64,000 bases of DNA from Candidatus Poribacteria bacterium (GTDB taxonomy: Bacteria; Poribacteria; WGA-4E; WGA-3G): NCBI GenBank assembly GCA_965247285.1, contig CBDFHD010000003.1:82795-146794 (forward strand), in the 5' to 3' direction. Shown in pieces: positions 25,415 to 48,210 of this stretch. Within the stretch, counting starts at the first letter, position 1, and every line of letters starts with the position of its first letter. The notes beneath the pieces were generated by a model that did no database searches, was not told the DNA's origin, and saw only the letters and a list, made by a program, of their open reading frames with translations. Both the position numbers and the translations under genes were made by a program.

Positions 25415-25618
25415 GTTATTGAAACCTATGTTGCCGTCTTGATAAGTCCCTTCACTCGGTAATCTCGGTTTTCCCCAGGCCCGGTAGGTGCGGTTTCTAA
25501 CCGCACCATAACTGTCAATTTAAGAAAAATATATCCATTTCTGAGTATGAGATAAAGTGTTGGTAGTCGAAATCTCTATAGTATCCTCTACAAAATGTGA
25601 GGTGAATGTATGGGTATT

Positions 25619-33236: not shown

Positions 33237-33372
33237 ATGAAGTTTCAATAAATATTTCGGTAATTCTATCAAGACCGGTTGTCAATCAAAAACGGGGTAT
33301 AATCATGGAAATCCGATAATCACAGAAATCACAGTTCAGACAATTACCCTCGCACATTACCGAATTTGAAAC
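33237..33372. mobile_element. MITE family C (right end degenerate)
   Basis: ATGAAGTTTCAATAAATATTTCGGTAAT left end; interior similar to 39702-39845. Confidence 0.65.
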
Positions 33373-33405
33373 TTGACAAAGCACTACATAAGGAACAACA
33401 AAACT

Positions 33406-37957: not shown

Positions 37958-38246
37958 ATCCGATGGTGAAATGCCTCCTTCGCTGGCGAGGTTTCTAACC
38001 CCGCCAATCTTTGGTTATATAAACCTAAGTTGCCATCTTTGTAGCACAATCTTTATGAAGTTTAACAAAATATTTCGGTAATTCTCTGTTTTTCCCAGAC
38101 CCGGTAGGTGCGGTTTGCAACCGCGCCGGGTTCTATTCACAAACCTTGCATACTCCAAGATCCCTCTTGAGTCCCGGAGGGTTTATTTGCTTGGGTATTT
38201 CTTCAGCATTTGTGTAGAAATTTGCTAACAAACGAATGGAATTTCA

Positions 38247-39521
38247 ATGGATAAAAGTGCATCAGATCAGACAAATTCCGGTTCGGAAGAGTCTTATCCG
38301 CATGAAAAACGCAATTTAGTTGTCTTTGCTCTAAACCAAATTCTGATGCGTCTCGGTTGGATGTTCAAATCCGAGTCTGTGGTCATTCCAGCGTTTATTG
38401 ATGTCTATACCTCGTCTGGAACCATCCGCGGATTGTTACCGCTCATTCTGAGAATCGGGCAGAGTTTGCCCCAGTTTCTGGTCGCGCAGCGTGTCGCACA
38501 GATGCCCAAAAAACAGGGGTTCTTTATTCTCTCAGGGTTCGGTTTTGCCATCCCTTGGTGCGTGTTGTCCCTGATATTGAGTTTAACACACTGGTCAGCA
38601 AATGTTATCGTTGCTGTTTTTCTTGTGCTGTGTACCCTGCACTGGCTCGCGGTCGGTTGCAATCATCTGGCTACCGGAACGCTGCAAGGAAAACTCATCA
38701 GTCCCGAAAAACGGGGCAGACTCCTCGCCTATTCCAATATCATCGGTTGTACACTTGCGATCGGAGTCGCTTTTTACCTCTTACCGCGCTGGCTTTCTGG
38801 GAGTACGCCGCGTTATGCGGTACTCTTTGCTGCGACGGCTACCTTCTTTGGCGTTGCAACGGCAGTCAGTTTCTGGTTTAAAGAGCCGCTTTCACCGCCA
38901 CAACGCACCGCACCTTTTTTCAAATTTCTTGGCGATGCACTCCTATCATTAAGGTATGATAGAAATTTTCGGCGATTTGCAATCGTTATTCTGCTGTTTT
39001 ATTCGATCTGGCCCCTTTTTCCACACTATACGATTTTCGGAAAGCGGACATTAGGACTCGCCTCTTCTGGTTTCGTCACGTTGATAATTGCACAAAATGC
39101 ATCCAATGCTGTCGGTGCCGGTATCATGGGCAACATCGCAGACCGCTCAGGGAACCGATTTGTCTTGCGTCTTCTGATATTAATCAGTGCCTTTATGCCA
39201 TTATTGGCGGTGGGTATTAGTCGAATGCCTTCCGGTGCTCAGTTTTATTGGATTATCTTTGCGCTTATGGGATTCACACCGGTGTCAGCCCGCATCGTCA
39301 CAAACTATACTCTTGAAATTGCGCCGCAGGAGAAACACCCCCAATATCTCGGCGTGATGAGTCTTTTTCAGGCGATCCCCTTGTTCGTTTCACCCTTGAT
39401 TGGCGCGTTAATCGAGAAATTCGCCTTTGAACCGGTTTTTATCGGGTGCGGTGTCCTTGTTTTGTTAGGGTTTTTGCTGACGTTCCGATTGGCTGAACCA
39501 CGGTTTGACCAGAGGTCCTGA
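38247..39521 (+). CDS. MFS transporter
   Basis: About 12 hydrophobic segments, GNIADRSGNR loop motif. Confidence 0.85.
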   Translation: MDKSASDQTNSGSEESYPHEKRNLVVFALNQILMRLGWMFKSESVVIPAFIDVYTSSGTIRGLLPLILRIGQSLPQFLVAQRVAQMPKKQGFFILSGFGFAIPWCVLSLILSLTHWSANVIVAVFLVLCTLHWLAVGCNHLATGTLQGKLISPEKRGRLLAYSNIIGCTLAIGVAFYLLPRWLSGSTPRYAVLFAATATFFGVATAVSFWFKEPLSPPQRTAPFFKFLGDALLSLRYDRNFRRFAIVILLFYSIWPLFPHYTIFGKRTLGLASSGFVTLIIAQNASNAVGAGIMGNIADRSGNRFVLRLLILISAFMPLLAVGISRMPSGAQFYWIIFALMGFTPVSARIVTNYTLEIAPQEKHPQYLGVMSLFQAIPLFVSPLIGALIEKFAFEPVFIGCGVLVLLGFLLTFRLAEPRFDQRS

Positions 39522-39540
39522 AAAAAGGGCAGTGTATCTG

Positions 39541-39855
39541 TTGTAGCACAAACTTTTAGTTTGTGCCATCCTGTGCCGCAAACTATGGTGAATTATCAAA
39601 ATATATAAACATTTCAGGGAACACCGTCCCCCGCCACCGCTGGCGAGGATTGTATCCTCGCCCGTCTTTCGGTGTATAAGTAATTCTATAATTCACCATA
39701 AATGAAGTTTCATAAAATATTTCGGTAATTCTATCAAGACCGGTTGTCATCAAAAAGGGTATAATCATGGAAATCCAATAATCACAGAAATCCCAGTTCA
39801 GACAATGAACACCACACATTACCGAATTAAATTCTTAATCTTCATGTAACCGCAT
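39541..39855. mobile_element. Nested repeats: GTAGCACAAAC REP, A-type MITE (39586-39698), C MITE (39702-39845)
   Basis: TA[TGGTGAATTAT...ATAATTCACCA]TA followed by ATGAAG...CTTCAT. Confidence 0.75.
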
Positions 39856-39884
39856 CGGATCGTCAATACAGGAGAGACATCATC

Positions 39885-40468
39885 ATGGCAGAGAAAATGT
39901 CGTGCCCATTTTGTGGCACCCACGTTGAATACGCTATCGAAAATTCTCCCGATTGGTACCGAGATCCGTCCCTACCCGTCTACCGAATCGATTGTCATGA
40001 TAAATGTAGACAGTATTGGCTTGAAGGGATTTCTGACCCGTACCCACAGATTGATCCCAGTATCCTTACCTTCTTGGATTCACTCAATGATGAACCTGGA
40101 TTACCTCGAAAGTCGAAGCGGCACTTGAAATCGATGGGGACTCTTCGGCGGCGGAGTTTGCGAAACTATCCGCTCTTCCTTCGCGCTTCTCACGGTTTGT
40201 CACAGAACAGGGTGAAGGACAAGACGTTTTTGGACTGATTCATTTGGATCTGGAACCACATAATATCGTTATCTCGGAGGGGCAACCCTGCCCAATTGAC
40301 GTGATCGGCTTGGGATTTGGGTATTATCTCTCAGATATTCTGACTGTTTCACGCTATTTTAGTGAGGATGAACAGGCGATTTTCTTTGAGAGTTATCAAG
40401 AAATCCGCTCGCTACCCGAAGACTACCCTCAACAGCTGGCTCTATTTGAAGAGTTGTGCATGCTGTAA
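39885..40468 (+). pseudogene. Chimeric pseudogene: Zn-ribbon-like N-terminus joined out of frame to an APH/choline-kinase-like phosphotransferase C-terminus
   Basis: CPFCG...CHDKC start with RBS; a second frame from about 40094 reads TWITSKVE...FGLIHLDLEPHNIV...PID...GFGYYLSDI...FFESYQEIRSLP. Confidence 0.65.
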
Positions 40469-40872
40469 CCTATCTGTGGGAATACGTCGGGTGTGTAAAT
40501 ATCTTGGCAGCATTCTGCTGTGGAAGCGGTGTTTACTACAAAAGACACCTCGTCAAAACACATAGCACTCCGCTGGAGTGCGGCTATAGAGAATCCCGAG
40601 TTCTATTCTCACTGAGAAGCAATATCACGCCGCTGGCGTGAAGAAAGATTTAGAAGGAATGTTTATCTGTAAAGATATCCCTTTGCATCAGCGGTGGAAC
40701 ATGTCTATAGTGAGATGGGGTTAGCGGGCAGTGCTGCTCTTTGCTCCAGCGGAGCAACATTTCTATAGAAAAAGAACTTTACACACCCAATACGTCCGTT
40801 CTGATTGACCTACCTTCACATCTATGATAACATGTCTGCACAAAAGATACGGAATGTCTAAGGAGTCTCCAC

Positions 40873-42264
40873 ATGGAACATCGTTATCTTTTCCTCGATC
40901 TACATCATATCACCCGAATCGAAAGACTTTACCGTCGGATGCACCAACCCCAACGGCATCCCGATAACCCAGTGTTACGCGGTGAGAATCCGTGGGAGAG
41001 CGTTGCCTCCCTCTACGGCACAGTCCTCTACGATCCAGGGAATTCGCTCTTCAAAATGTGGTATCTCACAGGACCCTACGTCGATGGAATGGTGAAAATC
41101 CGTCAACGGGACGCACTCGGCAATATAACACTCCTCGGCTATGCCACCTCAACCGATGGCGTGCATTGGGAGAAACCCATCCTCAATCAGGTCGACTTTG
41201 AAGGTAGCACCGAGAACAATCTGGTTGACATTGGACGCACAAACTGCGAAGGTGCCGCTATCATCTATGATACGCACGAAACGGATCCGACCCGTCGTTA
41301 CAAGGGGTTTTATTGGGAACACGGCGGGATCGACACCTTCATTCAGCACGAAGGACGGACGCTCTGGGGACGTGGGGACGGAGACGGTATGTGGATGTCT
41401 TTTTCACCAGATGGCGTTCACTGGACGAACTGCGAAACCAATCCCGTCATCCCGCTTGATAGCGATACCACCCAATCCTTAGTGTGGGATCCCAAAATAC
41501 AGAAGTACGTTGTCTTTGGGCGATTCGGGTCAGGTGGACGCAAAACCGCTCGCGCCGAAAGTCCGGACGCAATCCACTTCAGCGAACCGAAGCGGGTGTT
41601 TGAATGCGACGAAGTTGATGAAGAAGGTACCCAAATTTACGGCATGCCCATCAATCTCTACGAAGGCATCTATCTCGGTATGATCTGGGTCTATCGCGAA
41701 GGCGTTGATGGCACGATTGACACATCCCTCGCGATGAGTCGTGATGGTGTCCACTGGCAACGCGTCTTGGATCGTCAAACATTTCTCTCTCTTGGGCAGA
41801 CAGGCAGTTGGGAAGATGGGATGGTGAGAATCACCCAGAATTTCGTCACACGCGACGACCAGATATATTTCTACTACGGCGGCGTGAACGGACCACATAC
41901 TGGCAGGAAATTCAAGCAGGTCGAGCGCAAGCACACATCCATGCTCGGATTGGCGACGTTGCGACGTGACGGGTTCGTCTCGCTCGACGCAGATGAAACC
42001 GAGGGGTACATGCTAACGAAGCCTTTGACGCTCAATGGTGGGGAATTACACCTCAATGTTGATGCCAATCAAGGCTATATTATCGTCTCAGTCACCGATG
42101 ATACAGGCGAAGCCTTAGAGAATTATGTCTCTGATCAGATCGTCGGGAATCAATTAGAGGCAGGGGTTGAATTTAGCCGTTCACTGGGAGCACTCAAAGG
42201 GAGAGAGGTCCGACTCCGATTTCAAATCAGGAACGCAAGCCTGTATTCCTACTGGTTTGCCTAA
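40873..42264 (+). CDS. Putative glycoside-hydrolase-like five-bladed beta-propeller protein
   Basis: YATSTDGVHWEKP, SPDGVHW, SRDGVHW, LRRDGFVSL. Confidence 0.7.
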   Translation: MEHRYLFLDLHHITRIERLYRRMHQPQRHPDNPVLRGENPWESVASLYGTVLYDPGNSLFKMWYLTGPYVDGMVKIRQRDALGNITLLGYATSTDGVHWEKPILNQVDFEGSTENNLVDIGRTNCEGAAIIYDTHETDPTRRYKGFYWEHGGIDTFIQHEGRTLWGRGDGDGMWMSFSPDGVHWTNCETNPVIPLDSDTTQSLVWDPKIQKYVVFGRFGSGGRKTARAESPDAIHFSEPKRVFECDEVDEEGTQIYGMPINLYEGIYLGMIWVYREGVDGTIDTSLAMSRDGVHWQRVLDRQTFLSLGQTGSWEDGMVRITQNFVTRDDQIYFYYGGVNGPHTGRKFKQVERKHTSMLGLATLRRDGFVSLDADETEGYMLTKPLTLNGGELHLNVDANQGYIIVSVTDDTGEALENYVSDQIVGNQLEAGVEFSRSLGALKGREVRLRFQIRNASLYSYWFA

Positions 42265-42265
42265 A

Positions 42266-42698
42266 TAACGTGAGTTCGATTAAAGGAGCCTCTCCTTGTA
42301 CCGCAAACTGTTAGTTTGCGCGGAATACGCCACAAACTATGGTGAATTATGAAAATAACTCTCACTGCGAGGCAATTTCAAAAGAAGCGAAAACCCGCCA
42401 CCCCCGCTGGCGAGGTTTCCTAACCTCGCCAATCTTCTGGTGTATAGGTAATTGTATATTTTACCATAAATGAAGTTTCAATAAATAATTCGGTAATTCT
42501 ATGACGGGAGTTTTAGGCAACAAGGAAGTCCACTCCAGCAAATCCGATAAATCCTGTAAATCCTGCTTCAGACGATTAACACCCCACATGACCGATTTAA
42601 ATTCTGAATCTTCATAAAGTTTGTGCTACAATTTATGTCTTTGACACGCGAAAACTGAACTTTTAGGTGGACGAAATATTTAAGTCGAACTCACGTTA
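42266..42698. mobile_element. Family E element containing REPs and nested A-type and C MITEs
   Basis: Outer TIR TAACGTGAGTTCGA...TCGAACTCACGTTA; A-type at 42340-42466; C at 42470-42615. Confidence 0.78.
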
Positions 42699-42744
42699 AA
42701 TAGGGTAACCCTATCGACGAAACTTTCAATCCGAGGAGGAAAAA

Positions 42745-43164
42745 ATGAAACATATCTATCACAAAGAGGATGCCGAGGTCCTACGAATCGAGGGCGAGGC
42801 TCCACGGACGTTGTACACCCTCGTTGAACCGAATACCGTTGGGACTGAACACTTTGCAATGGGATTAGAAGAAGTTGATCCCAATAGCGAAATTCCTATC
42901 CACTCGCACAGCGAAGCCGAGGAGATCATTTTTGTTTATGGTGGGCAAGGCAAAGGGTTCGTCGGTGATGAAGTCGCTGACTTGAAACCCGGCACAGTCA
43001 TCTATATCCCACCCAATGTCGAACACCGCTTTGTCAATACAGGCGATGAACCGCTCTGGATTACATGGACGCTCTCGCCGCCCGGTTTTGAGACGCAGAT
43101 TCGGAAGATTTCTGAGGGTTCCGCTGGAATGGAAGTCTTTAGCGAATCTAAAGACAGTTCCTAA
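42745..43164 (+). CDS. Cupin domain protein
   Basis: PIHSHSEAEE..G.G and PGTVIYIPPNVEHRFVNTG motifs; GAGGAGG RBS. Confidence 0.92.
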   Translation: MKHIYHKEDAEVLRIEGEAPRTLYTLVEPNTVGTEHFAMGLEEVDPNSEIPIHSHSEAEEIIFVYGGQGKGFVGDEVADLKPGTVIYIPPNVEHRFVNTGDEPLWITWTLSPPGFETQIRKISEGSAGMEVFSESKDSS

Positions 43165-43170
43165 ATTATG

Positions 43171-43279
43171 TAGGACTTGCGCATTTTCCCCTTAAAGTCC
43201 TCCTGCCCCTATGATAAGGGGATGTAGGGGGTTGGGGATTTACAGATTAAATGAAACGAATACTCTGCGCAAGCCTCTA
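43171..43279. mobile_element. Degenerate MITE, family J
   Basis: TAGGACTTGCGCA ... TGCGCAAGCCTCTA. Confidence 0.5.
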
Positions 43280-47919: not shown

Positions 47920-48210
47920 TAGGGCTATTTATATAATTCACCATAGTTTTCCATTTTTCGGTCCGATTTTCATCCCAGACCCGGTAGGAGCGGTTTGATG
48001 AAGTTTCATAAAATATTTCGGTAATCATAGAAAAGCAATTCTCAACCAAGAAGCGTCTGTAATCCTATAAATCCGATAATCACATGAATCCCGGTTCAGA
48101 CAATTACCCTCCCACATTACCGAATTAAATTCCTAATCCTCATGTAACCGCTCCGGCTTCATCAAAAAAAGGCGCGAACCCCTATAACTTCTTAAAACTG
48201 AATGACCCTA
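47920..48210. mobile_element. Family K element containing a GTAG REP split by a C MITE (47998-48143)
   Basis: TAGGGCTATTTA..TAGTTTT and AAAACTGAATGACCCTA ends; GTAGGAGCGGTTTG[ATGAAG...CCTCAT]GTAACCGCTCC. Confidence 0.75.

Follow-up and report, generated by a model that had tools for sequence, protein, structure and literature searches.

How could a gap of 16-17 bp between two genes come to measure 480 bp? The shorter spacer is found in the relatives L009, L011 and L046, the longer one in the present genome, a Candidatus Poribacteria bacterium (G000) with a 5.65-Mb assembly of 48% G+C, where it separates a gene of 463 aa, which gave 0 Pfam matches, from a cupin gene. Orthologues of the upstream gene were found at 56 loci, the majority of them titled Candidatus Poribacteria. 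The spacer lies in the window, i.e. the whole stretch of 64,000 nucleotides that was analyzed (C3:82795-146794), and contains a block of 433 bp (42266-42698). An earlier note had described this block as a set of nested non-autonomous transposons, here called E, A and C, and direct reading confirmed every element that it listed. Since every part belongs to a multi-copy family (115 E-type, 143 C and 93 A termini), the block is a real nested structure, beyond what chance would produce. Contigs from four runs span the junctions between the genes and E (42084-42311, 42025-42324 and 42626-42744). The same runs were searched for polymorphism in short contigs (of the pieces listed, none exceeds 300 nt). 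All four runs have a joint from 42339 to 42616, which leaves out A and C together, and three of the four have one from 42337 to 42467, which leaves out A; the sides of these joints are just 18-27 nt long and identical junctions exist at other copies in the genome, therefore they are uninformative on this locus. No Rfam family was found within 39000-43200, and a scan for promoters and terminators gave weak consensus matches only.

Element E and its pair of REP hairpins

The outermost layer, element E, occupies 42267-42697 on the + strand, its bounds (AACGTGAG...CTCACGTT) being taken from comparison of the family. It is 431 bp long here and about 155 bp long in its empty form, which is due to the presence of A and C inside it. 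The 14-bp outer repeat reported previously is present, as TAACGTGAGTTCGA at 42266-42279 and its reverse complement at 42685-42698, but its outermost T/A pair belongs to the target duplication, because E proper begins one base inward and AAAT stands on both sides of it (42263-42266, overlapping the TAA stop codon of the upstream gene at 42262-42264, and 42698-42701). Ends of the form AACGTGAGTT[C/T]GA occur at 115 places in the genome, a count which allowed up to two mismatches and in which a few are due to chance, and they are common to several MITE subfamilies and to an insertion sequence of about 1035 bp that is present in six copies. The ORF of the latter scored 246 bits on NF033520 (IS982 family, NCBIfam; cut-off 130). 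The TIR AACGTGAGTTCGA of E and the TIR AACGTGAGTTTGA of this insertion sequence differ at one of 13 positions, the other 12 bases being shared, and the target duplications of both are AT-rich and 4-7 bp long, for E being AAAT at this locus and a 5-bp AAAAT in two empty copies. The TIR match and the short AT-rich direct repeats are the reason why E, a small element with a 13-bp TIR, an AAAT duplication and 115 family termini, is classified as an IS982-type MITE. Unlike the IS982 insertion sequences, E possesses no ORF, and its interior is a pair of REPs. The view that E is itself a layer aimed at REPs had to be abandoned, as E is an IS982-type MITE which carries the REP pair with it.

The interior of E consists of two GTAG/GTAC-headed REP hairpins, inverted to each other. 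The first one is intact (42298-42321, + strand) and has a GTAC head, the stem CGCAAACT and the loop GTT. The second one is split. Its left half (42330-42339, + strand; CCACAAACTA), delimited with the help of empty copies, comprises the stem CACAAACT and the first loop base, while its right half (42616-42629, + strand; AAAGTTTGTGCTAC) comprises two loop bases, the stem AGTTTGTG and a CTAC tail. Between the halves lie a copy of A, named A1 (42340-42466, + strand), with TA duplicated at 42338-42339 and 42467-42468, and a copy of C, named C1 (42470-42615, + strand), which has imperfect TIRs of about 28 bp (ATGAAG...TTCGGTAAT). The central loop base A of the hairpin is duplicated, with its left copy at 42469 and its right copy at 42616. 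Computed removal of A, one TA and C from the block gave CACAAACT-AAAA-AGTTTGTG, with a 4-base loop, whereas nine other E copies are empty and read CACAAACT-AAA-AGTTTGTG, with a loop of 3 bases; the second REP is thus restored apart from one extra base, exactly as claimed before. The hairpin inside A (GGCGAGGTT-TCCT-AACCTCGCC, a REP of the GGCGAGGTT family at 42409-42430, + strand) and the 9-bp repeat inside C were also found as described, the latter being an array of three AAATCCNNN units (42540-42566) followed by TTCAGAC (42540-42573 as a whole, + strand). This nonamer-array module is carried by the C1 subfamily and also occurs free-standing elsewhere in the genome.

The hairpins are short imperfect palindromes with a conserved head tetranucleotide and many intergenic copies, as is expected of REPs. 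The CAA[A/T]CT family, to which the hairpin split here belongs, has 43 hairpins genome-wide, 37 of which were counted with a GTAG head, and other REP families of the genome have 99-217 hairpins each. Two points recall the known systems of REPs or REPINs with their RAYT (Y1) genes: the target hairpins are GTAG-headed and multi-copy and two of the families flank Y1 genes in arrays, and the hairpin pair of E is, like a REPIN, inverted with heads outward. There are just four Y1 matches in the genome. One RAYT gene (C3:1644182-1644469) is flanked by nine and five hairpins of the GAGG[A/T]T (GGCGAGGTT) family, another Y1 gene (C2:364274-364687) is flanked, judged by eye, by hairpins of the GCACTCC family, and flanking hairpins of the CAA[A/T]CT family were found at none of the four. 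Unlike REPs and REPINs, E, A and C are TIR elements of DDE transposases.

Element C and the tips of hairpins

Searching G000 with a profile of the ends of C gave 143 termini and 43 pairs. Flanks are complementary over at least 6 bp in 32 of the 43 paired copies, compared with 1.9% for 20,000 positions drawn at random and 13.6% when left and right flanks were paired by shuffling, and the cataloguing of C flanks that had been proposed as a check shows that they are not random relative to REPs. A perfect stem of at least 5 bp surrounds C in 33 of the 43 pairs, with two loop bases on each side in 25. In 23 of these 25 copies the central loop base is repeated, so that N1N2N3 becomes N1N2[C]N2N3 with any base at N2, the same pattern as at 42469 and 42616. 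An exact 7-mer of a stem which forms at least five hairpins elsewhere is abutted by 90 of the 143 termini (random positions: 355/50,000). With TIRs of about 28 bp, a one-base duplication and 143 termini C has the characteristics of a MITE. The targeting is not peculiar to one genome, as C ends are present in 12 of 12 other searched genomes of the genus, and in five other genomes 17 of 21 C pairs have stems and all 13 copies that have two loop bases on either side show the doubled centre. An orthologous spacer provides the clearest single test, as it reads ACT-GTT-AGT in L032 and L004 and ACT-GT[115-bp C]TT-AGT in L002, so that the empty and the filled state of the same loop could be compared, as the earlier note had suggested.

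The targets themselves are diverse. At least five REP families supply the stems, and one near-identical 115-bp C subfamily sits in CACAATCT, CACAAACT, CGCAAACT, GGCGGGGTT and GGAGCGGTT hairpins. The third complete C copy in the window (47998-48143, + strand) occupies a GGAGCGGTT hairpin loop (TG[C]GT), and C was also found in palindromes that are not REPs (AATTTTT-TC[C]CT-AAAAATT and AATGCC-TA[C]AT-GGCATT). Among copies of E, nine have an empty loop in the second hairpin, five have C exactly there, these being different C subfamilies, and one has C in the loop of the first hairpin. Among E, A and C, hairpins are targeted by C only. The proposal that A and C are both specific for REP loops thus holds for C, genome-wide and in relatives, but not for A, of which 85 of 93 termini abut TA and whose flanks point to AWYTARWT as its target.

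Some copies deviate from this pattern. Flanks without complementarity were found in 11 of the 43 pairs, and in three of the 11, including the copy at 39702-39845, the flanks are halves of two different REP families, for which later recombination is needed as an explanation. A few C-type insertions have duplications of 0 or 2 bp. Orientation relative to the REP head is one way in 19 of 27 classifiable termini, a bias too weak to interpret. Occupancy also varies between hairpin families, with 25 C termini to 23 empty CAA[A/T]CT hairpins and 10 termini to 171 empty G[A/G]GGTT hairpins, and this roughly tenfold difference indicates that sequence or context counts too.

The association of C with half-stems could be attributed to the opposite relationship, in which the real outer TIRs of C would be the half-stems, the free REPs being remnants after excision of C or its internal deletion. 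This would be in accordance with the doubled central base in nearly all 4-base loops of two REP families (TCCT, AGGA, TCCC and GGGA), as precise excision that keeps the one-base duplication would leave exactly such doubled-centre loops. REPs, however, far outnumber C, as the 171 empty G[A/G]GGTT hairpins illustrate; REP families have RAYT genes of their own with flanking arrays, the empty loops are mostly of 3 bases, and palindromes other than REPs also hold C. We regard this explanation as extremely improbable and treat the hairpins as the targets of C.

No sequence is common to the arms of the various targets. The likely signal is therefore symmetry or an extruded hairpin, and C probably recognises structure or symmetry and not sequence. 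The alternative is that C targets duplex DNA by sequence, for example by a loose symmetric motif whose arm ends are rich in pyrimidines, and that the potential to form an extruded hairpin or cruciform is incidental. In most arms the base nearest the loop is indeed T or C, centring on the dyad would also be expected of a symmetric transposase dimer bound to duplex DNA, and the tenfold variation in occupancy fits such a preference. On the other hand, the arms differ at every position (CAAACT, GCGGTT, GAGGTT, GCGCTT, CACTCC, TGCCC, ACGCAA, AATGCC, ATTTTT) and complementarity of the flanks is the sole feature common to all listed targets, and we consider a duplex motif rather unlikely, although worth keeping in mind, next to recognition of structure or symmetry.

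Full-length relatives of C and their transposase

No homologue of a C-type transposase was found in the search of G000, and the link between C and its enzyme therefore rests on TIR identity with elements in other genomes. Four long elements of G000 with C-type ends were considered as autonomous C and rejected, being short C MITEs with a nested element or two separate MITEs: those at C2:203197-204800 and C3:3746956-3748559 are each a C MITE holding an IS4-family element, the one at C3:1255927-1257462 is a C MITE holding an IS701-like element, and the one at C2:363983-365279 consists of two MITEs with a Y1 gene between them. Where C termini of G000 converge at a distance of 600-4000 bp, they enclose no candidate transposase. 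The identification of cognate transposases by TIR match nevertheless succeeded for E, with the IS982 element of G000, and for C, with a 1.24-kb IS630 element in relatives, while for A it yielded one matching end.

One such full-length element (L103:142-1382), from another family of the same order, is 1241 bp long, has C-type TIRs and lies within CACAATCT-GT[element]TT-AGATTGTG. With 174 bits its 395-aa ORF exceeds the cut-off of 100 on NF033545 (IS630); it also scored 80 bits on DDE_3 (PF13358) and matched HTH_32, HTH_29 and HTH_23, i.e. it has the DDE_3 domain and the N-terminal HTH of an IS630 transposase. Homologues of the C-type transposase were found in 33 of 121 searched genomes of the order (120 relatives plus G000), and the full-length parent is present in 32 of the 120 relatives. 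Palindromic flanks surround 14 of 17 single-genome representatives of the full-length element (1234-1243 bp) and 21 of 22 full-length copies in genomes G120 and G071. In these two genomes 19 copies have two loop bases on either side, and each of the 19 shows the central duplication. G120 has 15 full-length copies, many of which lie in a single host repeat family and resemble one another over 41-52 nt of outer flank, and consequently not all of them are independent events; the element is found in both orientations within this host repeat, which means a minimum of two events there, and the distinct flank classes number at least seven in G120 and at least five in G071.

When three C-type transposases were put in a multiple alignment with two TA-type ones of IS630 elements from the same genus, D202, D284 and E345 proved to be invariant. 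All three C-type enzymes have a lysine- and proline-rich insert of 26 residues between D284 and E345, absent from the two TA-type ones, and the spacing from the second D to E is 60 residues in the C type and 34 and 31 in its TA-type relatives. This insert may have a part in target recognition by the C type. A sequence search of PDB with the C-type transposase gave no match, and a BLASTP comparison with the A-type remnant of G000 was not significant.

Integration at TA is regarded as the signature of the IS630/Tc1/mariner superfamily. The parent of C resembles this group in its HTH and DDE_3 domains, its TIRs, its length of about 1.2 kb and its many MITE derivatives, but C and its parent differ from it in using palindrome centres instead of TA, with mostly a one-base duplication, their flanks being N1N2 and N2N3 with any base at N2. 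Insertion sequences directed to REPs are known from other families, and two of them, IS1397 and ISKpn1, duplicate 3-4 bp of the loop. These are IS3-family elements which insert into the palindromic units (REPs) of enterobacteria, and the transposase itself is deemed responsible for their specificity (PMC1525189). The aiming of insertion at REP hairpins is common to them and to C, but they are autonomous, have few copies and are tied to the REPs of their host, whereas C uses at least five REP families and palindromes other than REPs. The rve domain, the two ORFs and the TG...CA ends of IS3 elements are not found in the parent of C, which is of IS630 type, and the four rve matches in the genome are IS3-like elements with other ends and no palindromic flanks. 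REPs are likewise the landing sites of the IS110-family elements IS621, ISPpu9 and ISPpu10, (PMC1525189; PMC12288879; bioRxiv 10.64898/2026.03.19.712850). Those elements have a DEDD recombinase, which a bridge RNA directs to one sequence, and no long TIRs, in contrast to C with its 28-bp TIRs, DDE_3 domain and many targets. The families of REP-targeting insertion sequences named in the accessible part of PMC1525189 are IS3, IS110, IS4, IS256 and IS5, and IS630 is not in that list. Among bacterial MITEs, Correia elements and RUP are named as IS630-derived in an excerpt of PMC2817692. In the open-access literature we found no description of hairpin-directed IS630 elements and none of MITEs of Poribacteria, and the part of a review on prokaryotic MITEs that was searched (PMC10969869) had no match for 'nested', 'IS630' or 'IS982'. 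C is a clear example of a target-specificity variant of IS630 for which no published description was found in open-access text, REP-targeting insertion sequences as such being known, and the block as a whole is an equally clear one of selfish DNA in stacked form.

Element A and the assembly of the block

The behaviour of A is exactly that of the IS630/Tc1/mariner group. TA flanks 85 of 93 A termini, the consensus of the flank being A-W-Y-T-A, and judged from these flanks the target of A is a palindrome that reads AWYTARWT. TA stands on both sides in 10 of 12 BLAST-defined pairs, stems surround none of the 12, and the reconstructed empty site fits AWYTARWT fully in 9 of 22 pairs. The TA duplication, as in IS630/Tc1/mariner elements, and the 93 termini characterize A as a MITE. 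A possible full-length parent is indicated by one matching end: G120 has an IS630 element whose two ORFs overlap at a T run and which at that end shares GAAAATAAGTTTACATTT (18 bases) with A1-type copies, its other end being only loosely similar to A. In another genome (G012) the C-terminus of an IS630 transposase adjoins a TAGTAAAG end with a TA flank, and the sole DDE_3 match in G000 is a truncated 135-aa remnant of an A-type transposase. An 886-bp repeat of G000 (C3:4090744-4091629) that starts with TAGTAAAG was rejected as the parent of A, as it encodes an exported protein with no visible features of a transposase.

That A as well as C seeks REP loops, in an ordered hierarchy of loop-seeking elements, was the reading of the earlier note. 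In its favor, A stands in or beside a CAA[A/T]CT loop at four places, namely three A+C tandems and one broken E copy, in whose loop A was found with no C beside it. Moreover, all three tandems are located at CAA[A/T]C-TA-AATGAAG junctions, of which nine more are unoccupied, and an occupancy of 3 of 12 junctions compared with about 21 of 1040 AWYTARWT sites genome-wide gives a Fisher p of 0.002, although with small numbers and with a rough estimate for the latter, made from the 9 of 22 fitting pairs and some 50 A elements. Against it speak the TA rule and the AWYTA consensus in 85 of 93 termini, and the four sites themselves fit the motif. In the A flank lists no REP flanks were seen beyond these four places, the other flanks that were read looking unrelated to REPs, and the catalogue of A flanks is thus contrary to what had been expected. 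We consider loop-seeking by A to be quite improbable; the recurrence of the tandem is explained by the junction between REP and C, which creates the motif of A. Such REP-C junctions are one kind among AACTAAAT sites.

The second tandem in the window, at 39584-39845, had been reported as the same arrangement in the same REP type. It consists of an A copy of subfamily A2 (39586-39698, + strand; TA at 39584-39585 and 39699-39700), whose left flank is the half REP GCCGCAAAC, and a C copy of subfamily C2 (39702-39845, + strand). The tandem and its left flank GCCGCAAACTA are indeed of the same type, but the right flank GTAACCGCATCGG (39846-39858) is half a hairpin of a different REP family, and the REP is not restored. 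The finding three times of half REP, TA, A, TA, A base and C, together with the outer flanks of 41-52 nt shared by many full-length copies in G120, could suggest that a single composite, either the A+C tandem or C plus the half-stems at its sides, was copied whole, and that the architecture reflects descent and not choice of target. The components have their nearest relatives elsewhere, however, as solo copies. Four solo copies match A2 at 96-99% identity and four match A1 at 87-89%; five copies elsewhere match C1 at 92-95%, and the identity between C1 and C2 is just 75%. For this reason the two tandems in the window are, as judged by these identities, independent assemblies and not copies of one block, and the derivation from one ancestral block, which the earlier note had named as a refutation of its target-specific hierarchy, can be discarded. 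The five stem sequences around one C subfamily, the orthologous empty site, the nine E copies with an empty loop and the two orientations of the insertion sequence in the shared host repeat of G120 also speak against copying as a whole, and we find it hardly credible. Repeated targeting is preferred.

As to the order of insertion and INDEPENDENCE, A-first and C-first yield an identical final string, and the broken E copy shows that A can stand in such a loop with no C next to it. C requires an intact hairpin, hence we infer that it was probably inserted before A at this locus. The boundaries, the duplications, the family-wide statistics of targets, the full-length matches for E and C and the independence of the tandems, as established here, make it quite probable that the block is the product of three separate transposition events, of E, of C at the dyad of a hairpin and then of A at the TA created by C. 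E, with its about 155 bp, would have been mobilised by the IS982-family transposase of the genome itself and would have entered just after the stop codon with duplication of AAAT, bringing with it the inverted pair of GTAG-headed REP hairpins. C, 146 bp long and presumably derived from the 1.24-kb IS630-family insertion sequence, would then have inserted precisely in the middle of the second hairpin's 3-base loop, with duplication of the single central base. The C lineage would select two-fold symmetric, hairpin-forming DNA of many sequences and have its ends joined one base apart around the dyad, possibly by means of an IS630-fold DDE transposase which binds the 28-bp ends, captures the symmetric target and attacks its two strands with an offset of one base. 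A would have followed, at the TA of CAAAC-TA-AATGAAG; this site matches the motif of A and would not be there if C did not occupy the loop. Mariner-type enzymes bend their target sharply, and the tip of a hairpin could mimic such a bent target site, which we offer as a lead only. To our knowledge a one-base stagger is not known for IS630/Tc1/mariner enzymes, and this counts against the explanation that we otherwise find best. The targeting by C is known here from sequence.

From these results a wider picture can be drawn, tentatively and with somewhat less than even confidence, in which a lineage of IS630/Tc1/mariner swapped the TA rule for DNA shape by way of the 26-residue insert, its transposase seeking out the tips of extruded hairpins or cruciforms of nearly any sequence, and in which the selfish DNA of Poribacteria is layered, one layer providing the landing sites of the next: REPs of RAYT type host C, C makes the motif of A when it sits in a CAA[A/T]CT loop, and an IS4-family element inserts by preference into a REP borne by C, with duplication of the entire REP. 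The growth of the spacer is explained by small elements stacked on one another, with the ribosome-binding site of the downstream gene kept. For annotation it is important that such composites are easily taken for single long repeats or RNA elements. Insertion into REP loops is a concrete case of transposons confined to other selfish DNA. The safe landing sites of the earlier note would be an evolutionary reading of this pattern. A natural branch that inserts at hairpin tips with a one-base duplication would show that the choice of target can be re-wired within the IS630 fold, and the insert between D and E is a defined candidate region for that choice.

C-type MITEs and the loops of REP hairpins

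Two further copies of C, the IS630-type MITE that inserts at hairpin tips, were found in CAA[A/T]CT loops of the window, one with a degenerate right end (33237-33385) and the other truncated after its internal REP (38055-38146). Three other copies, one in the window (39702-39858) and two on contig C2 of the genome under study (C2:974303-974448 and C2:977877-978022), are flanked by half hairpins from two different REP families, which suggests either that C copies have recombined with one another or that C was inserted between neighbouring REPs. Throughout the genome, when a hairpin of the GCGGTT or GAGGTT family has a 4-base loop, the central base is nearly always doubled (TCCT, AGGA, TCCC, GGGA, TCCG and CGGA). 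Such a loop would be the form expected after precise excision of a C element; alternatively, the doubled-centre loops may simply represent a REP subfamily.

In the 146-bp C subfamily the nonamer array consists of AAATCCNNN repeated and then TTCAGAC (window 42540-42573), and the same array is also present free-standing in intergenic DNA on contig C3 (C3:1643516-1643561, 1646836-1646880 and 1647000-1647330).

Insertion sequences and Y1 genes associated with REPs

The insertion-sequence repertoire of the genome is dominated by TnpB-only elements, with at least seven repeat families scoring on TnpB models, and it includes one IscB-like family, a copy of which truncates the C copy at C3:3241803. 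One element of the IS4 family, about 1.49 kb long and with the TIR CATAGGTGTCAATTTAG (NF033592, 195 bits), is present at C2:203268-204737, C3:2880075-2881544 and other sites. A complete GGTGCGGTT REP is found on either side of this element, and at one non-REP site the direct repeat that borders it is about 19 bp long; its target duplication therefore seems to be about 20 bp, that is, the entire hairpin. In one subfamily of the element, five of the six copies sit in the REP inside C-type MITEs or their remnants. An end of the same element type adjoins a REP at about position 25507 of the window.

Two Y1 (RAYT-like) genes were found among REP hairpins. The first, which lies outside the window (C3:1643600-1644700 together with its hairpins), is bordered on one side by GGCGAGGTT hairpins arranged in a 50-bp tandem array and on the other by inverted copies, the hairpin counts being 9 and 5 within 600 nt. 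The second (C2:364274-364687) is surrounded by GCACTCC-type hairpins, two of which carry C-type MITEs in their loops.

E copies and the orthologous spacer in relatives

Other copies of E, the IS982-type MITE with an inverted pair of REP hairpins, contain two further MITE families (C3:892801-893085 and C3:2477881-2478189). The family with ends AGGACTTACGCA is inserted where the stem of hairpin 2 meets its loop, and that with ends CAGGACTATTTAG lies inside hairpin 1 with a 10-bp duplication. The gene spacer that holds E in the window (42267-42697) is a hot spot in relatives too. The orthologous spacer of L001 holds a REP unit in a four-fold tandem array, and that of L003 a different element of 346 bp with E-type ends. 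In L004 and L032 it holds one REP together with a left end like that of E, and the right end is missing. The left junction, TAAAT joined to AACGTGAG, is shared with the genome under study.
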